DNA of 64,000 nt from an uncultured Gammaproteobacteria bacterium. GTDB taxonomy: Bacteria > Pseudomonadota > Gammaproteobacteria > UBA9214. The stretch spans positions 1 through 64,000 of the forward strand of contig CAVYZN010000005.1 in the NCBI GenBank assembly GCA_963773065.1, read 5' to 3'. The translations under genes were made by a program, and so were the position numbers. The notes under the pieces were generated by a model. It did not search any database. It saw only the letters and a list, made by a program, of their open reading frames with translations, and was not told where the DNA came from. Each line of letters starts with the position of its first letter. Within the stretch, counting starts at the first letter, position 1. Of this stretch, positions 1-42,008 are shown in pieces.

Positions 1-3000
1 CGACGCCTTCCCGATAGGTGATACCGCCCGTTGCGGTCATCAGGATATTGGGACTCTGGTCGGCGTATTCCTTGATCTGCACGTCGCGCGATTTATTCCG
101 GACCAGGTGGATATCGATCTTGTCGTACCGGATTTCCTTCATGTAGTTGACCAGCCGCGAGACGGCGCCCAGCCCGAACAGGCCGGTGGGAATATTCGAC
201 CCGCCCTCCCCCAATACCCCCGCGAAGCCGGAACTTGTATCAGGACCGCACTGTTCGGATTGAACGGGCGGAAGTCGCCATCGCGGCTTCGCAGGCGCAT
301 GTCGAAGTACAGGTTGTTGCGATACTGGGGCAGGTTGGGCGAGGCGCGAAGGCATCGAGACTAACATCGAAGAGCCCTTCCGCGCGCGGCGTGGAGCCGG
401 GGGATAAGTTCCCGGAAAAACTTGGCCAGGTCGAACCGCTCCACACCGGGCAAAAACTTCAGGCCGTAGGGTGTCTCGCCGGGGGTAAAGCTCATCGACC
501 CGTCGAGCGTCATCGGGCCCTCGTGGAAATGCGCCGCGAAACCGTCGAGTTCGAGTTTGTCGGGTAGCAGAGCGGCTTGGCCCTGGATGTCGCGGAACTC
601 GAGATAATCCGTGTAGAAGAGGCGATCGAGTTCAATTTCACCCGCGCGTCATAGTCGCTCGTGTCCCAGAAGGCGCGCGCATCCGGCTTGAGGTCGGGGC
701 CGGCTTCTCCTCTGCCTGCTCCGCCGGGTTCTCCGCGGCCGCCGGCTTTGTTTCCCCGGAGGGCGCGGCCAGCTGTTTTCCCCGCGATGGCGTTCAGCGT
801 GTTCAGGATGTCATTGAGATAGAACACCGTGCTGTCGATGGCGATATCCACGACCTTGTTGCTGCCGCCCTTGGGGCATACGCGGCCTTCACCTGGATAT
901 CACTGTCGCCGGACTTGCCCTGTTCCCTGAGGGGCGCCGGAGGGTGAACCCGCCATCGGGGGCAAGCCGCCCTCGACATCCAGTTCAAGCGTCCGCAGCG
1001 CCAGCTCTTTCTTGGCCTTTAAATCCTGGATCCGGGTGGTCGCGGTGAGCTTCCCGCTGGTATCCACCCACACGTTGCCATGAGCTTGCCGGCCGTCAGG
1101 GTGTGACCGGGCAGGATCGCGGCTGATCGAGGACTGCCGGCAATAATGCCAACAGATCGGCGTTCAGGGCGTCGCTACGACAACACCAGCGGCTTTCAGC
1201 GTCAGGTCGGCGCGCGCATCGAGGGCATGCGCTCCGCGGTCGCGATCGAAGGCGATGCTGAGCGCACTCAGATTTGCCTGCAAGGTATCGCCCTGCAGGG
1301 TCGTTTCCGAATCCACCGCCAGGGTGAACGGGTTCAGCATGGCTCCGGCCGTGTTGTTCACGGCGATTCCCGTTATCTTGAGGGGTTCGATGGTATCGAC
1401 AGTCAGGGACTTGCCATTCGAGACGAGCACGGCCTTGCCGGTTGCATCCGAGAAGGCAAGGCCCTTCGCCTTGAGTATTTTCGCAAACGGCTCCGGCGTC
1501 AGGTGCGCCAGCGTGAGCGTGACCTTGCCGGTGGTGCGGCCGAGTTCCGATTGCCTCCCGCCAAGCCGGGTGCGCACCCGCAGTTTCGAATCAGCCTGCA
1601 GCGACACACGCGGTTCCGGGCGGTATAGAAGAGACTGGCCGCAAGGCGATCGATATCAATCGCCGAATCGCCAAGCGCCAGGCTGTAATCCGCCTCCAGC
1701 CGCACCGGTGCATCGAACGCCGCCTGCAAAGCCGTGGCGATAAGCGGTTGCCGCGAAAGCGCCTGCACGTCGACGTTGAGGTGACCGTCGGTCACGAGGG
1801 GTTTATCCGCCGATGCCGGCAGCGTGATCTGGCCGCTGCCGGAAACCAGCCGCGCCCTGTGACTGGTAACGCCGAGATCCTGGTAGTCGATATGCGTGCC
1901 TTCCGGTGCGATGCGGACGGCGGGCCTTACGCTGATGCCGAGATCATCGAGCAGCGGGCCTTCAGGGCCGGTGACAGTGACATGACTGATTTCGACGGGC
2001 TTGCCCGAGGTAATGGTGGCCGCGCCCTTAGCGTCAGCGGCCAGAGTCAGATCCGCGCGGTAGAGCTTGCCTTTCAGCGTGGTCGCCGGCACGAAGGCGG
2101 AAAACCAGTCCAGTTGGATGTCGCTGATGGTGAGCGTGGCCAACTCGCCCGTGGTGTTCCCGAGTTTGCGGCCGGCCGGCGTGGTTTCCATGACGAGGGG
2201 TTGCAGCACTTGCAGCCGCAGCAACCGGGTCTTGTTCTCCAGAGACAGGCTGGCATCCAGTTTGTTCACGGTCACCAAGCCGGGTTGTTGCCGCAGGGAT
2301 GCCTGATAATCCAGGCTGAGATGCCGGGGCAGTGTTTCCCGGCCCGCCGGTTTGATGGCGAGAAAGTCCACCAGCCTGTGCAGATCCAGGTCGGCATTGG
2401 CTTGTGCGGTGATGTCACCGTGCGACTGCTTCGACAGCGGGATGGTGGAATCGAGGTCGGCGGTGGCCAGTGCGCCCTTGCCGGCATCGACCACCAGCTT
2501 TTTGAGTGAGACACTGAGCGCATCGCCGCGATAGGTCACGCTTGGCAGAACTGACAGATTGAGGCCCTCGATGAAGGCTGTATCCTGTTGCTTGACGGTG
2601 AGCCCCGTTACCTCCAGTGGTTTGACCGGTTTGATGTGGATCGCGGCGCTGGCATCGGTTGTCACCTCGAAGGCGGCTTTCAGGATTCCGTCCGTGATTT
2701 CGTAATCGGGCAGGAACACGCCAAACCAGGCCAGCGGCACCCCGGGCAGTTCAAATTCCAGCAGGGTGTTTTCCTGGTGGAGGAAAGCATCGATATCGTC
2801 CATGGGAACATGGAGTTCACCGGGAAGTCTCGATGCCAGGGGTTTATTGTTGGCGTCGTCGAACATGTCCGTATCCAGCGTCTCGACCCGCAACTGCTTG
2901 CCGGGCAGCAGCGACACACGGAAATTATTCCTAAGCCGCAACATTTCGGGGAGCCTCTTGTCGGCGTGGACCTCCCGGATATCCTTCATCTGCAGGTCGC

Positions 3001-4017
3001 TGGTGATTGTCATGTCGCCGGTCAGGCTTGCGCTATTGAACTTGAACTCCCCCGTCAGCACTTCTCCGGCTGGCGCTATGACGGTATCCCTGAGATAGGG
3101 CTGCACCAGCCGCTCATTCGCCGTGGCTCGGTAGCCGCCATCAAAACCACCGCTATTCCCGTCATAGGTGCCGTCGAGTTCCACGGCCGAGCGGTTCTCC
3201 CCTTTGCTGTCATCAAGCCGCAGTGCAAGGCGCAGCGCCTCGGGTGTGTAGTGCGGCCCCTCGCCGTCCTCCGGAGGCGGGGGCGCCTCCTGCTGAACGG
3301 CAGCCGCGTGTGCCGGTGTGACGGCCAGGTTCAGATTGACGCGCTCCGTCTCCGGCAGCGTCGCCAGCGTGGTCTGAATGGCGAGCGCGGTTTCCATTCT
3401 CGCGAAGCGCCCCCGCGTGAGCTGATCCAGAACTAGCCGGCCATCGACATCGATATGATCATCCTTGTTACCCGTGTCGAAGTGTAACGCGACAGTGATG
3501 GCGCCGTTTGTCTTAGGTTTGATTCCGCCGCCTGAGATACTTGCGGTCAGTGACCGTTTCCCGGGGAGGCGGACCGTGATATTGATCATCACGTCCCGCA
3601 GGGTGTAACCGAGTCCGTGTTGCAGTGAGGCCAGCACACCGGGAAAGGGACCACCGCTTTTAGACTCCGCGGATTCGGGCGGGTTGAACTTCTCCAGGTC
3701 GATGCTGACATCCTTGAGTGCGAGGGTCTTGATGTTGAGATTCAACAGGAGGAGTGACGACAGGCAGTACTTGAACGACCCTTCCTCGATCGAGAAATGA
3801 CCGCCCCGATACCCCACGGAAAGATGCTTCAGGTCCAGTGACCATGGCGTGAGATGGATGTAACCGATTTCCAGCGAATCGACCAGGGGACCGACGTGGT
3901 CGAGCAGCATTTTTTTCTGGAAGGCGGGGTGAAATACGACGGCAGACACAACACCCAGGATGAGTGCAAGGCCCGCGGCAGATAAAACCTGGGACGCTTC
4001 AGATCAGCAAGGCGCAT
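1..4017 (-). CDS. Large AsmA-like/beta-rich envelope protein (>1300 aa), split by several frameshifts; 3' end lies outside the window
   Basis: Consecutive minus-strand ORF pieces (3829-4017, 1499-3949, 1164-1607, 510-851 and an open frame to position 1) read as one protein. It has an N-terminal hydrophobic anchor followed by beta-strand-like sequence. The family call is an inference. Confidence 0.55.
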
Positions 4018-4193: not shown

Positions 4194-4761
4194 TCATTTC
4201 GGAGTATAGCTGAACTTCTGTCCGCCAATGCTGGCTTCATACATCAACCCGCCCTTGGCCACGGTAAAGACCGCCATGCCCTTGTGGTATTCTGCCCACC
4301 GTGGTCGCATCATGTTTACCGCCGCTGGCGCCGGCGGAACTCCCGGCGGTCGTGGCTCCGGCCGAAGCGCCCGCGGTGATCGCCACCGCCGATGCCTGGG
4401 CACCGAATTCGAAGTTGCCGCTGGTGAACTCATCGAAGGCGCGCTTATCCTCGAAGAAGACAATCTGGCTGTAGGCCTGTCCCCCCAATTGGAAACCCAC
4501 GCTCAACTGGGTCACCGAGGTGTCGCCGACGTAATTGCCCTTGGCGTAGACCCTGCCCTTGCCATAGGCCCCGCCAACGACCATGCCGCCCTTGCCGATG
4601 GTGGGAAACACGGCGTAGCCGTAACTCTTGGCGAAGAAAGTACCGCTCTCGCCGGCGTCCTTGAAGACCTTGATGGTGTCATCGTATTCGTCCGCCCAGG
4701 CCGGGGCGAAGGGTACGGCCAGCAGCAAGAAAACAAGAAAGGTATGTAATTGCAGTTTCAT
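4194..4761 (-). CDS. Secreted lipid-binding SYLF/YSC84-domain protein (frameshift near 4291)
   Basis: Signal peptide MKLQLHTFLVFLLLAVPFAPAWA and motifs YGYAVFPTIGKGG, SVGFQLGGQ. The C-terminus GLMYEASIGGQKFSY is in another frame. Confidence 0.85.
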
Positions 4762-4900
4762 GGGTATTTCTCCTTTGCCATTACACTCCCAGACATGGCA
4801 GGGAGGATTGTGAAGTCCTTCATGGTAGCTCTGATTAAGCCTGATAGGGGTCGAGAAGGGCTCGCGCCCTCCCCTCCCTCCGAACCGTGCGTGCGGTTCT

Positions 4901-6895
4901 GGTGAGTAGGTCGGTTCCTCCCGCCATGCCCGGACACTGTTTGTTTTCTCTGTTCCGCCTGGTTTCCCGGCGGTGCCACAATAGCGTGTCCACACAGCAG
5001 TACGTCCCCGACCCCTCGTAGAACCGGACAAGGTGCGTTACACCATCCGGCTCCCAGATTGAGTCATTCCGATCGGCTTAGGATAGAGGTTGTGAACAAT
5101 GCGTATACGCGGCAACACGCGTTCCAGCAATATCGGACGGAACCGCTTCCAAGGGATAGAACGGCGTTGACTACGCCGGTTGAGCCACTTGTACAGTAGG
5201 CGGCTCGCCGCCATGACGTAGCGACTCAACGCCCGGTAGTTGCCACTCACCCCATAGTAACGGATGTGCCCTTCAAGATGCCGCCGCACATAGTCCATCA
5301 TGGCCTTGCCACCGGCCATCCGTAGCCGGCACAGACGCTCGTTCAACTGCTTGAGTTTGCCATTGAACCGCTTCCGCTCAGTCTTGCGACCCACCACAAA
5401 GCGGCCGCGACGACTGCGACCGACGTAGTGGGTCAACCCCAGGAAGCTGAACGTCTGGGGACGACCTAGCCCATCCCGATGGCAATCCCTTTTCGCTTGC
5501 GTACCGAAACGCAGCACAGCCGTCTTGCTGGGCTCGACTTCCAGGTCAAAGGCAGCCACTCGCTCCCCCAATTCCCGGTGAAAGCGATGCGCCTCATCCT
5601 CGTGCTGAAAGCAGGCGATGAAGTCGTCGCAGTAGCGCACCAAAAAGGCTTTACCACGACAGGACTTCTTGTAACGCCGCTCGAACCACAGGTCCAGCAC
5701 GTAATGGAGGTAAATATTAGCCAATGCCGGTGATACCAACCCACCTTGTGGGGTCCCTTCATTCACCTCGTTGACCACCCCATCTTCCATTACCCCTGCC
5801 TTGAGAAACCGCTTCAGGATTCGCAGAACGTTCGGGTCTGCGATGCGGTGTTCCAGAAACCGTAGCAGGTGGGAATGCGAAACATGATCGAAGAAGCCTT
5901 TAATGTCGGCCTCTACCACCCACTGCGTGCGCTCGTTGGTAATGACCTCCGCCACTCGACGCAGCGCATCGTGCGCGCTGCGCCCGGGACGAAAACCAAA
6001 AGAGCAGTCCTGAAACTCCGGCTCCCATATCGCCTGCAGAATCAGACTCAGTCGATCCTGCACAATGCGATCCTCAAAACAAGGAATGCCCAGCGGACGA
6101 CGACGGCCATTCCCTTTCGGGATGTATACTCGCCGCACCGGCTGCGGCCGATAGCCCATTTGCCTCAGGCTACACGACAGCTCCGTTAGCCGGCTTTCCA
6201 GCCCTTCCGCATAGTCCACTTTCCTGATTCCATCCACTCCGGGCGCCTTCTTTCCATCTTGACGCCCGAAGCTGGCGTGCAACCCCTCCGGGTCGAACAG
6301 CAGCCCCATCAGGGCATTGAACCGCAACTGCGGTTCCGCACGCGCCTTCTCGGTGAAACGGATAAACTTCGTTGTCATGGTCACAGTCCGCTCAGTGTCG
6401 GGCCATGTTGCCCTTACCCGTTGTCTCAAACCGGTGCCCCTTTGCTCCACCCGCATTACCGGGCTTCATCGCTCGTATGGGCACCCCCGACTTCCGACCG
6501 CCACCGCCCTCTTCCTCGCTTGCTAGGCTTGTCCGAGGGTACGCAGATCCCTCTGCGCCGACTGTCGGATCTCCCTGGTTACCGCGCAATCGCCTTGTGA
6601 GGCTCGAAGCGACCTTAGATCCCGGGGCGTTCCCTGACACTTGCCTCTCACGCGTCAGGAACTGTTGCCTGCTGGGTGCAAGAACCCATCGGCCGATTCC
6701 AACGATGCCGTTTTCGGGACTCAACGTCTTCAGGGTCAGCATCACCTGTTACCTTTGCACCTCGCCTCCTTTCGTACCTACGCATCAATCAGCAAGTTAC
6801 CCCGCTGACTGCAAGGCTCAATACCGGGCCCGTGGCTAGCGGCTACCCGGGTGGGATTCGCACCCACTCGATTACGCGACCTTGCCAGGTCGCAT
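4901..6895 (-). mobile_element. Inner group II intron with intact RT (boundaries +/-1 nt)
   Basis: Starts ATGCGACC at about 6895. Has its own domain V (GAGCCGGATGGTG-TAACG-CACCTTGTCCGGTTC) near 5053-5021 and a long domain VI ending CCTACTCACC at about 4901. Confidence 0.85.
5038..6378 (-). CDS. ltrA: Group II intron reverse transcriptase/maturase, no endonuclease domain
   Basis: Motifs KAPGVDG, RRVYIPK, RPLGIP, SFGFRPGRS, DIKGFFD, GTPQGG, RYCDDF, FSFLG and an X domain. Start placed at MTTKF. Confidence 0.95.
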   Translation of the reverse strand: MTTKFIRFTEKARAEPQLRFNALMGLLFDPEGLHASFGRQDGKKAPGVDGIRKVDYAEGLESRLTELSCSLRQMGYRPQPVRRVYIPKGNGRRRPLGIPCFEDRIVQDRLSLILQAIWEPEFQDCSFGFRPGRSAHDALRRVAEVITNERTQWVVEADIKGFFDHVSHSHLLRFLEHRIADPNVLRILKRFLKAGVMEDGVVNEVNEGTPQGGLVSPALANIYLHYVLDLWFERRYKKSCRGKAFLVRYCDDFIACFQHEDEAHRFHRELGERVAAFDLEVEPSKTAVLRFGTQAKRDCHRDGLGRPQTFSFLGLTHYVGRSRRGRFVVGRKTERKRFNGKLKQLNERLCRLRMAGGKAMMDYVRRHLEGHIRYYGVSGNYRALSRYVMAASRLLYKWLNRRSQRRSIPWKRFRPILLERVLPRIRIVHNLYPKPIGMTQSGSRMV

Positions 6896-6927
6896 CCCCG
6901 CACCCGGCTCTCCAGTGGGTGGTTTCC

Positions 6928-7141
6928 TCATCGGGAGTGTCTCGCAGCCAGCCAGGCCGTATGTAGGGAGAACAGCCCGGCGTCCGCGAAGAAGGCATTG
7001 GGCCACTTTGTACCACTTGCCTCCTTCGACGCCGTTTACCAGCGCCGACACCATGCGCTCCGTCCAGAGAGAAGCTTCCACCCACGACCAGTCGCGGGGC
7101 TCTGCACCTTGTTTAGCCCTCGCGGGCACTGTCGATGCTAT
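6928..7141 (-). pseudogene. Remnant of the outer intron RT: N- and C-terminal stubs joined by a large internal deletion
   Basis: N-terminal WVEASLWTERMVSALVNGVEGGKWY is joined out of frame to C-terminal WPNAFFADAGLFSLHTAWLAARHSR*. All RT core motifs are missing. Confidence 0.8.
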
Positions 7142-7582
7142 CATTTGCTCCTCTCTGTCTTTCACGCTTCCACCTTCCTGCCCACCTTCCCTCGGCCTGG
7201 CTTTGCTAACCCGGCCTCTCGCGGCTTGCACCGCCTCGGTACTATGCGGGCTCTGACTCCTAACCCTCATCGCCCTGAGAATCAGGTCTCTCCGCTTAAG
7301 ACGCTTTGCCTTCCGAACATCCCGCCCCCAACCACGTCATGCGCCCGGACGTCGTTTTCACAGTCATCTCAACGCGTCCGGCGGGTTCCAGGCTTCGCCA
7401 TGAATGAGCAGGCTCGCCGCTACATGCCGCCGAATCGGGTTCGTCTGCCTGCGGGCTATTCTTTCGCCTTCGGTTGCTCACCACCCCGCCTCGCGGCGAC
7501 GCAGTTACCTTCGGCTACACAGGTTGTGACTTCCTATGACATGGACTTTCACCTTGTTAACAAAACGTCCTCACGGACGCAC

Positions 7583-7607
7583 TCATTCCCGCGAAAGCGG
7601 GAATGAC
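7583..7607. repeat. REP-like hairpin, target site of the outer intron
   Basis: TCATTCCCGC-GAAA-GCGGGAATGAC. A related copy GGATCCCCGCCTTCGCGGGATGAC lies at 9477-9500. Confidence 0.8.
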
Positions 7608-7831
7608 ATGTTCAGAGATCCCCGAAGTATTGAATTTGCATTTCATCCGGATGTAGTCTCTGAGTTGAGCGACAGTGAAACCCCTATCCCACCGGGAGAG
7701 GACCCGTGTGAGGGGGTCAATCATCAGCGCATTTTTTAGTCCCCCTCACTGCGGACCCTTCATGCCCCTAGCCCGGGTACTTCCGAAGGAAGTACCCGTG
7801 TTCAAGGACTCTGAACCCTTGATCCTGGATT

Positions 7832-8011
7832 TCATTTGCTGGTCTCTTCGCGGATCTTGTCACCCGTCTCCTCGATCTTATCGCCTGCTTTCTCAACCGA
7901 CTGGTCGACCTGTTTACCGGCGCGCTCTGCCGGTCCTTCCTTGGACTCGCAGCCGATAATGGCCGCACCCAGTAGCGTCACAAGTATGATCAATGCTGGC
8001 TTTACTTTCAT
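7832..8011 (-). CDS. Small lipoprotein, 59 aa (below the ORF-track cutoff)
   Basis: MKVKPALIILVTLLGAAIIG-CESKEGPAERAGKQVDQSVEKAGDKIEETGDKIREETSK*. Lipobox-like IIGC and an upstream GGAGG RBS. Confidence 0.8.
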   Translation of the reverse strand: MKVKPALIILVTLLGAAIIGCESKEGPAERAGKQVDQSVEKAGDKIEETGDKIREETSK

Positions 8012-34085: not shown

Positions 34086-34162
34086 TGGCGGAGTGGACGG
34101 GACTCGAACCCGCGACCCCCGGCGTGACAGGCCGGTATTCTAACCAGCTGAACTACCACTCC
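34086..34162 (-). tRNA. tRNA-Asp(GTC)
   Basis: Cloverleaf, GTTCGA T-loop, CCA end. Confidence 0.96.
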
Positions 34163-34169
34163 ATGTCCA

Positions 34170-34245
34170 TGGTGGGTGCTGAGGGGATCGAACCCCCGAC
34201 ATTCGCCTTGTAAGGGCGACGCTCTCCCATCTGAGCTAAGCACCC
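34170..34245 (-). tRNA. tRNA-Val(TAC)
   Basis: Anticodon loop CTTACAA, CCA end. Confidence 0.96.
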
Positions 34246-40917: not shown

Positions 40918-41002
40918 TGGTGCGAAAGGAGAGGCTCGAACTCTCACGGGTTACCCCACTGGCACCTAAAACCAGCGCGTCTACCGATTCCGCCACTTTC
41001 GC
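40918..41002 (-). tRNA. tRNA-Leu(TAG)
   Basis: 85 nt with variable arm, CCA end. Confidence 0.95.
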
Positions 41003-41128
41003 CGCTTGTGCTAATTACCGTTTGCCGGTTCTGGCAAGACCGGATAATGCAAATAAGTATAACGGCTTGTCGTCACAGATCGCACCTGGGTTTTTTACCT
41101 CGCCGCCCCGGGAAAACAGGTGCCATGG

Positions 41129-41492
41129 CAGGCGCATCGCTCTCGCTCCGCCGCTTACGGCATCCTCGGTAACTGCTCCTGCGTTACCCTACCTCCTGCA
41201 TCCCTGCAGTCGTGCCTTCCGCGACACTTGCACCTCCCTGTGCATCGGTCGCTACGGGCATACTACCCTCCCGCGACACTCGCACATCCCTGTGCATCGT
41301 CCCTGCGCTTCGCGATGATGGACAGGACGTCCGAATGTCGCGGAGCATAGGACGTGCGAGAGCGACTGTACCTACATCCCTGTGGGCGCATCGCTCCCGC
41401 GCTTCCCTGCGCTCCGCGATGTACCTACATCCCTTACGGCGCATCGCTCCCGCGCCTCCCTGCGCTTCGCGATGTACCTACATCCCTGTAGG
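41129..41492. repeat. Repeat mosaic with 53-bp tandem units (41367, 41420, partial at 41473)
   Basis: Unit TGTACCTACATCCCT...GCGCATCGCTCCCGCGC(T/C)TCCCTGCGCT(C/T)CGCGA, plus recurring CATCCCTG motifs. Confidence 0.8.
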
Positions 41493-41529
41493 CAAAAAAA
41501 TGCCCGCGCAATGCACAGGCATCCTGGTC

Positions 41530-41605
41530 TGGTGGGCCGTGTAGGAATCGAACCTACAACCAATGGATTAAGAGTCCACTGCTCTACCAATTGAGCTAAC
41601 GACCC
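41530..41605 (-). tRNA. tRNA-Lys(CTT)
   Basis: Anticodon loop CTCTTAA, CCA end. Confidence 0.95.
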
Positions 41606-41687
41606 GAAAGCCGGTATTGGATCACACAGGCAGGAGGGGTTCAAGTTTGAAGTCGGCTACCACCCAGCGTGGGCAAGGACGGAAAAA

Positions 41688-41764
41688 TGGGGTGGACGAT
41701 GGGACTCGAACCCACGACGACTGGAATCACAATCCAGGACTCTACCAACTGAGCTACGTCCACC
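41688..41764 (-). tRNA. tRNA-His(GTG)
   Basis: Anticodon loop TTGTGAT, CCA end. Confidence 0.95.
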
Positions 41765-41807
41765 ATCGAGCTGTTATCGCACGGCACTCACTCGGCACGG
41801 GCTGATT

Positions 41808-41884
41808 TGGCGCGCCCGGCAGGGCTCGAACCTGCAACCGTCGGCTTAGAAGGCCGGTGCTCTATCCGGTTGAGCTACGGGCGC
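41808..41884 (-). tRNA. tRNA-Arg(TCT)
   Basis: Anticodon loop CTTCTAA, CCA end. Confidence 0.95.
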
Positions 41885-41931
41885 CAGTCCCTTTGCCCGG
41901 TCCCCGCGACTTGCTGCGCCCCAGCAAAGAC

Positions 41932-42008
41932 TGGTCGGGGTAGAGGGATTTGAACCCCCGACATCCTGCTCCCAAAGCAGGCGCGCTACCAGACTGCGCT
42001 ATACCCCG
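41932..42008 (-). tRNA. tRNA-Pro(TGG)
   Basis: Anticodon loop TTTGGGA, CCA end. Confidence 0.95.

Follow-up and report, generated by a model that had tools for sequence, protein, structure and literature searches.

A group II twintron with an intact retroelement inserted in the domain V loop of an outer group II intron

The stretch of DNA analysed here (the window, 64,000 nucleotides (nt) of contig CAVYZN010000005.1, assembly GCA_963773065.1, from an uncultured gammaproteobacterium) carries between its genes a group II twintron, made up of a group II intron nested within a second one. The inner intron, which encodes an intact reverse transcriptase (RT)/maturase, divides the apical loop of domain V of the outer intron, and the outer intron retains a remnant of an RT gene of its own. 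The insertion point directly follows the intron-binding site 1 (IBS1), the six bases with which exon-binding site 1 (EBS1) of the inner intron pairs. The features of both elements, all of which lie on the minus strand, are collected in Table 1. Because the twintron is intergenic, no host gene depends on the order in which the two introns splice.

Table 1. Features of the twintron and its landing site, with coordinates in the window
Feature	Coordinates	Strand	Description
Landing-motif hairpin of the outer intron	7584..7605	-	9-bp stem and 4-nt loop, then one A
Whole twintron (outer group II intron)	4844..7582	-	GTGCG to ...CCCCTAT; derivative with its open reading frame (ORF) deleted
Outer domains I-IV core	7301..7500	-	RF02001 (group-II-D1D4-3), 42.4 bits, gathering threshold 32, model positions 1-170 in full
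Outer RT/maturase gene remnant	6911..7146	-	N- and C-terminal pieces in different frames
Outer domain V, 5' half	6897..6910	-	14 nt, GAGCCGGGTGCGGG; last six bases, UGCGGG, are IBS1 of the inner intron
Inner group II intron	4901..6896	-	1996 nt; starts GAUGCG, ends CUACUCACC
Inner domains I-IV core	6610..6860	-	RF02005 (group-II-D1D4-6), 114.9 bits, gathering threshold 49, full-length model match
Inner EBS1	6677..6682	-	CUUGCA; intron positions 215-220, positions 3-8 of an 8-nt hairpin loop
Inner RT/maturase gene	5038..6378	-	446 amino acids (aa), intact; RVT_1 121.9 bits; TIGR04416 340.8 bits, cut-off 300
Inner domain V	5020..5053	-	Alignment to RF00029 and plastid D5 models
Inner domain VI	4901..5017	-	Internal extension of ~95 nt; bulged A 7 nt from the 3' end; RF00029 alignment
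Outer domain V, 3' half	4882..4900	-	19 nt, AGAACCGCACGCACGGTTC; begins with A, position +1 of the target for the inner intron
Outer domain VI and 3' end	4844..4881	-	Ends ...CCCCTAT; one difference from the homologue on contig C10 of the same genome

The inner RT, which is encoded in domain IV, lacks an endonuclease domain, and the stop codon of its gene falls within the loop of the inner domain V. The Rfam model RF00029 (Intron_gpII) has its sole match in the native sequence from 4400 to 8000 at 5055-4901 of the inner intron. In this alignment domain V is well formed and an A bulges out at position -7, while the score of 32.8 bits stays below the gathering threshold of 40 because of the domain VI insertion of about 95 nt. 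The large domain VI and the 3' end motif CUACUCNCC are conserved among the relatives of the inner intron. The 5' end departs from the canonical GUGYG, in that GAUGCG keeps G1 and carries one extra base after it. Most relatives start with GTGCG and others with GUUGCG, GCAGCG or GUCGCG, and wherever a relative appears to start with TTGCG, ATGCG, CAGCG or TCGCG, a G always lies just before. Active introns with non-canonical 5' ends occur, as exemplified by TeI4h in the extracts available of PMC2882425. The boundaries are placed at 6896 and 4901 because the EBS1/IBS1 register of the family and the uninterrupted homologues agree on them; the sequence-only reading made of this DNA beforehand, which had delimited the segment as 6895-4901, was right about the 3' boundary and is corrected by one base at the 5' start.

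The outer intron begins with GTGCG at 7582, one A after the hairpin at 7605-7584. The genome contains the hairpin motif, ATTCCCGCNNNNGCGGGAAT, 14 times and a reversed control never; at three of these places an intron of the outer type comes next, and all three outer-type copies sit directly 3' of the same hairpin plus GA. Class C (IIC) introns, according to the accessible portions of PMC4424553, target stem-loop (terminator-like) motifs and insert just 3' of them. The outer element thus behaves in a IIC-like manner with respect to its landing site after a dispersed hairpin, which is a statement about that site, the Rfam D1D4 families not being mapped to intron classes. The 14 places, among them C8:238843, C27:108401 and C32:92677, present a dispersed 20-nt palindromic hairpin, ATTCCCGC-N4-GCGGGAAT, and the 11 of them without the intron are thus empty potential landing sites for the outer-type intron.

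An Rfam scan of the native sequence from 4400 to 8000, with E values up to 10, does not detect the outer domain V, which is expected if the hairpin is split. Natural uninterrupted homologues on contigs C10 and C11 of the window genome (33 contigs, 3.84 Mb, 6.3% contamination), scored with Rfam, stood in for the in-silico-spliced window sequence. Specifically, contig C10 carries two full-length relatives of the outer intron in tandem, which share 74-86% identity with it in three blocks, are preceded by the same hairpin and contain an intact RT/maturase ORF of 448 aa; their contiguous domain V/VI scores 57.4 bits with RF00029. When the window halves are rejoined by script, 89 of 100 positions are identical to C10, and two of the differences fall inside domains V/VI. 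The restored outer domain V, like that of the C10 copies, measures 33 nt, and its fold energy is -20.4 kcal/mol, compared with -20.6 kcal/mol for C10. The outer intron therefore has a GUGYG start and domains I-IV in place, and domains V/VI that are complete only once the inner intron is removed, as judged from the C10 homologue. Precise removal of the inner intron restores the outer one, and empty counterparts exist for two host introns, on C10 and C11. An empty orthologous site was also sought in 53 other genomes of the family, giving two weak matches only, both to the conserved 3' region.

The sequence-only reading had taken the locus for a group II twintron whose outer domain V loop holds an intact retroelement, had placed the outer GTGCG end at 7582, had assigned to the inner element its own 5' end, RT, domain V and domain VI, and had expected the native sequence to lack an uninterrupted outer domain V in an Rfam scan. 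These claims are borne out: the nested arrangement by the two Rfam cores, the C10 homologue and the rejoined halves; the 5' end by its sequence, the RF02001 core and the shared hairpin context of the C10 copies; the parts of the inner element by the RF02005 and TIGR04416 matches and, below threshold, the RF00029 alignment; and the division of one domain V/VI by the inner segment by the score of uninterrupted C10 and the two differences on rejoining. A circularly permuted intron (PMC8637638) was considered and dropped, as the domain order is normal once the inner intron is removed. The C10 pair (G000:C10:18613-23200; L005, L008 and L009) consists of apparently identical copies 2634 nt apart, and about 370 nt downstream of it lie five evenly spaced CRISPR-DR32-like repeats (33.9-36.5 bits, below the gathering threshold of 48).

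The position of the inner intron can be explained by base pairing. Protein-guided scans for relatives of the inner intron gave 564 matches in genome contigs and 578 in metagenome contigs, of which the best 80 of each were kept. A pattern found the EBS1 hairpin (near intron position 213) in 52 family loci. With the intron start set at G, 43 of these show all six pairs between EBS1 and the six bases that precede the intron, at least 10 different target words being represented, and two of the nine other loci (L033 and L100) reflect a one-base mis-registration of the pattern. In the window, CUUGCA pairs with UGCGGG at all six positions, through four Watson-Crick and two G.U pairs. This IBS1 corresponds to the 5' strand of the domain V upper helix together with the first loop base, and the +1 base of the target is the second loop base. 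A metagenome relative, L090, has the variant target UGUGGG and an EBS1, CCCACA, that covaries to match. The window genome holds a second copy of the inner intron on contig C32 (G000:C32:189813-191808), which differs at two of 1996 bases; the two differences are adjacent, at 6681 and 6680, and both lie inside EBS1, which reads CUUGCA in the window and CCCGCA on C32. The near identity of the two copies indicates recent copying, and the intact inner RT, which passes TIGR04416, is a further sign of recent activity. The adjacent C/T changes themselves (6680-6681 in the window, 1715-1716 in L002, the C32 locus) may reflect chance, deamination or a step towards a new target.

Insertion at the same domain V position is found at eight loci: the window, C32, L010 (from another genome) and the metagenome contigs L090-L094. 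The inner RT of the window shares 93% identity with that of L090, 91% with L091, 87% with L010, 86% with L092, 85% with L094 and 74% with L093. All seven visible 5' flanks end in a sequence resembling the domain V 5' strand, ...CCGGRUGCGGG (UGUGGG in L090), and all seven visible 3' flanks resemble the 3' strand and begin with A, six of them reading ARAWCYGCAYG and the seventh, that of L090, being only 9 nt long; L092 is included on the strength of its 3' flank. In all seven loci with a visible 5' flank, the target is complementary to EBS1. L010 constitutes a second complete twintron, with two RF02005 matches (113.9 and 122.8 bits) and an ORF-less host. The hosts differ, since the outer intron of the window is of Rfam D1D4-3 type and that of L010 and C11 of D1D4-6 type, and such different kinds of intron are invaded because the target is the domain V hairpin. 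C11, in the window genome, is the empty counterpart of the L010 host: it scores 91.2 bits with RF02005, its uninterrupted domain V/VI scores 42.3 bits (gathering threshold 40), and over -24 to +25 its flanks are identical to those of the occupied L010 site. A quick maximum-likelihood tree built on 71 RT rows places all eight loci on one side of a branch with SH-aLRT support of 91, and the seven without L093 have a support of 99.

Collectively, the locus is very probably a genuine twintron that arose by site-specific retrohoming, produced by a lineage that retargeted its EBS1 to UGCGGG and inserts between loop bases 1 and 2 of the domain V of other introns. The exact junctions, the covariation of EBS1 with IBS1, the single insertion point at eight loci and the grouping of the RTs can be read directly from the sequences. 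A number of observations weigh against this reading, and they are given below together with the alternatives to which they lend weight.

The first group concerns the soundness of the assembly, in which repeated intron copies could have been wrongly joined. The assembly is fragmented and partly contaminated, as noted above, and the inner intron is itself a repeat of 2 kb. Logan contigs of four of the 22 public runs (X1, X2, X3 and the RNA run X19) were compared, and among them no contig bridges either junction by at least 31 nt on both sides, none contains the 6897/4900 joint, and those of X19 show neither transcription nor splicing of the twintron. The joints found in these runs have short sides (21-43 nt) and come from relatives, and two loose contig ends of 14 and 10 nt, each a single contig, give a weak hint of an uninterrupted domain V. 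Nevertheless, a chimeric join would not be expected to flank a repeat with two halves of one 33-nt hairpin, short contigs of X1 (12 nt) and X19 (17 nt) reach across the 5' junction, and the same architecture recurs in L010, whose long-contig assembly is independent, as well as in the four metagenome contigs with a junction in view. A misassembly is therefore barely conceivable, and the sequence-only reading, which had named it as one of the findings that would refute it, holds in this respect.

A second alternative is a one-off ectopic insertion, a chance landing with no lineage specialised for domain V. It would suit this alternative that a complete, recognisable host intron is present at only two of the eight loci, the window and L010. 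Other points weigh on the main reading in general. On C32 the host is a fragment, comprising a 3' remnant of about 55 nt (the domain V 3' half and domain VI) of the C11/L010 type, while its 5' side runs into repetitive autotransporter-like coding sequence with only about 8 nt resembling domain V; beyond these, the C32 5' flank shows no homology to the L010/C11 host intron. The L094 host is likewise a fragment, with a weak GIIM maturase remnant upstream of domain V (E = 0.0045, below the cut-off), and the flanks of L091 and L093 form a poor lower domain V helix, with six of nine pairs by eye, so that these two hosts appear to be decayed or recombined. A scan for EBS2/IBS2 (intron positions 120-330, 6-nt complements to exon positions -7 to -16, 41 loci) reveals no consistent site that matches the domain V targets; it is only in another subgroup that a motif near intron position 159 pairs, with GGGUCA. 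It is possible that the metagenome contigs do not come from independent organisms, and about nine rows of the tree (such as L013, L022, L036 and L125), which have a wrongly chosen longest ORF and very long branches, were kept, all of them outside the eight-locus group. Against a chance landing stand the domain V-like flanks at one position, seven of seven on either side, the EBS1 complementarity in all seven loci with its covariation in L090, the grouping of the eight RTs and the difference between the hosts. Recurrence at one site, pairing and the RT branch together indicate a lineage that homes into domain V, and a one-off landing is highly improbable. The flanks of other copies of the inner intron, whose inspection the sequence-only reading had called for, thus lie at the same domain V position, and its view of the inner element as a parasite of another intron is upheld by the complementarity of EBS1 to the domain V 5' strand and by closest relatives at the same site. 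The half-host on C32 (L002 1400-3560, inner copy 1500-3495) may, among other possibilities, have arisen by deletion, by the copying of a whole twintron with truncation at the 5' end, or because the outer 3' splice site was used.

A third group would fit a real insertion that is now inert, with the outer intron dead and, being intergenic, under no selection, and the inner copy no longer able to splice or move. Relative to C10, the outer RT gene lacks about 1.1 kb between the two remnant pieces (bounding blocks: query 363-574 and 638-686 against C10 19073-19296 and 20454-20502), and about 75 nt are lost further upstream. Of the N-terminal part about 45 codons are kept, from the ATG at 7146 to about 7009, the C-terminal piece starts at about 6945, and a Pfam search of the remnant ORF at 6872-7270 gives no match. 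Since its arrival, the outer element has lost most of its own RT gene. Its domain V stem contains a G.A mismatch at position 7, and in the EBS1 of the window copy two C-to-U changes make pairing with the site it occupies weaker. Furthermore, three matching target sites in the genome, two on C10 and one on C11, are empty, which implies that homing is inefficient, recent or no longer active. Extracts of PMC4424553 also describe bacterial twintrons as intergenic and without effect on gene expression. The inner ORF, however, is intact, the inner intron equals the C32 copy apart from two bases, which points to recent copying, both EBS1 changes retain six pairs, as G.U, and intact C10 maturases are present in the genome. 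A marsh-metagenome contig, one of the two loose ends mentioned above (the one of 10 nt), has the same G at position 7 in an uninterrupted domain V, so that this base need not be a sign of decay. An inert relic is, on these grounds, somewhat unlikely.

Finally, the outer intron could fold and splice with the inner intron retained, its two domain V strands pairing across the loop insertion, in which case no splicing order would be enforced. The insertion does lie in the apical loop, outside the catalytic triad and the 2-nt bulge, and plant mitochondrial twintrons exist whose outer intron splices with the inner one still present, according to the parts available of PMC7049729. The plant cases, however, are insertions into domain IV, which the same source gives as a structurally tolerant region, whereas in the window the domain V terminal loop is destroyed and the two strands of the hairpin are separated by 2 kb. 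Splicing around a retained inner intron is accordingly improbable. The terminal loop of group II domain V docks into domain I, and it is this loop that the insertion divides.

Under site-specific retrohoming, the inner intron ribonucleoprotein would reverse-splice into DNA at UGCGGG|A, and the endonuclease-less intron would then be copied from a replication-fork primer, as may be supposed from established endonuclease-less (En-minus) introns (PMC4424553 and PMC2504315, each in excerpt). Domain V may serve as a safe and portable target, being conserved, present in many copies, dispensable to the cell and able to travel between genomes with its hosts. Within a transcript, the outer ribozyme would be without a continuous domain V and docking loop until the inner intron is excised, and the outer intron, if functional, would need prior excision of the inner one and a maturase supplied in trans from the C10 copies. 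We infer, soundly in our view and as the sequence-only reading had done, that splicing would proceed in two ordered steps with the inner intron first, following the general twintron rule given in extracts of Zimmerly and Semper (2015, PMC4424553). Because the outer intron is ORF-less, carries a mismatched domain V pair and is intergenic, ordered splicing at this locus is probably without consequence for the host.

It is quite possible, if not quite probable, that the clade is an active, specialised hyperparasite that homes into the loop of domain V, the best-conserved sequence common to all group II introns, across unrelated intron classes, with its EBS1 tracking UGCGGG/UGUGGG variants and with hosts made dependent on excision of the invader. 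As the target is domain V and is reached through EBS1 pairing, almost every group II intron whose domain V has a suitable upper stem would be a potential site. If this is true, the clade could silence competing introns or hitch-hike on them, and pipelines that rely on an intact domain V/VI would systematically miss invaded introns. A survey that used a domain V-based pipeline states that it misses the outer introns of twintrons (PMC8919778). Surveys based on an intact domain V/VI are blind to the outer members of such twintrons, and ORF-less and invaded introns are therefore probably undercounted. The two occupied and three empty sites of the window genome, together with two EBS1 variants two bases apart, offer a test of how the target choice of a retroelement evolves, and the same sites could be used to test whether one ribozyme can be made to depend on another being excised.

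Further arrangements were observed among the relatives of the inner intron and elsewhere in the window. L115 (300-700) holds another twintron of this family: an intron starting with GATGCGACATGG at 385 interrupts domain I of a related intron, 85 nt from the host's start at 300, and its EBS1, CAAGGC, matches the host sequence GCCTTG. In L124 (1200-1235), two introns of the family stand head to tail, ...GGCTTACTCTCC being directly followed by GTGCGG, and no EBS1 pairing is seen at this joint. In L033, L037, L041, L106, L112, L145 and L051, relatives target GGGGACA or GGGGTCA and have two to three tandem repeats (units of 7-19 nt) in the preceding 40 nt; these repeats end in the target word, so that the target seemingly lies at the end of a repeat array. 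Unrelated to the twintron, the minus strand of the window carries seven tRNA genes in two clusters, at 34089-34245 and 40921-42008.

The closest counterparts of this lineage are B-like En-minus introns, namely M.a.I5, UA.I3, P.l.I2 and B.th.I3, whose homing site is the RYADD-coding motif in the RT gene of another group II intron or of a retron-like element, as described in the extracts available of Tourasse and Kolsto (2008, PMC2504315); nested Methanosarcina introns are also described in excerpts of PMC4424553. As with the RYADD-targeting introns, an En-minus lineage here base-pairs with the most conserved catalytic motif of other retroelements and generates twintrons, and host introns provide what the excerpted PMC2504315 terms a 'perpetual homing site'. 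Unlike in those introns, the target is the domain V loop and not RT active-site codons in domain IV (PMC2504315, likewise in excerpt), and the likeness is drawn from target behaviour, not from intron class. With domain V as the target, the insertion splits an RNA active site rather than a protein gene.

Thermosynechococcus offers another parallel, in which F3 introns are inserted where the ORFs of F1 introns begin (2010, PMC2882425, in extract). The two systems share ORF-less introns served in trans by related RTs, according to the same extracts; the Thermosynechococcus inner introns are ORF-less and lie in domain IV (PMC2882425), whereas in the window it is the outer intron that is ORF-less, the RT gene belongs to the inner intron, and the insertion is in domain V. 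The hallmark of an intron-homing lineage, repeated insertion at the same conserved site of other group II introns, is thus present at eight loci, while the hallmark of the M. acetivorans and T. elongatus type, a target in the host RT ORF or in domain IV, is absent, its place being taken by the domain V apical loop. For the Trichodesmium erythraeum twintron, sequential splicing in vivo is reported in the extracts available of Pfreundt and Hess (2015, PMC4649490); its inner intron lies in domain I and within a protein-coding gene, in contrast to the domain V site and intergenic position found here (PMC4649490, same extracts).

In full-text searches of the literature, neither a bacterial twintron insertion in domain V nor a domain V-targeting lineage was encountered, with the limit that supplements and subscription papers may list cases. 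The psbF twintron of the Euglena gracilis chloroplast, which Copertino and Hallick reportedly described in 1991, is said to interrupt domain V; it is said to be organellar, degenerate, non-mobile and situated in a protein gene, and to represent a single case rather than a homing lineage. To our knowledge, domain V targeting based on EBS1 is not described for that twintron. In bacteria and archaea, the cases known so far have the RT gene or domain IV as their target, whereas the lineage described here reaches the hairpin of the ribozyme active site through ordinary EBS1 pairing. Twintrons, and introns that home into introns, are already known; what appears to be new, in the light of these searches, is that a clade directs its EBS1 at the catalytic hairpin of other group II introns.

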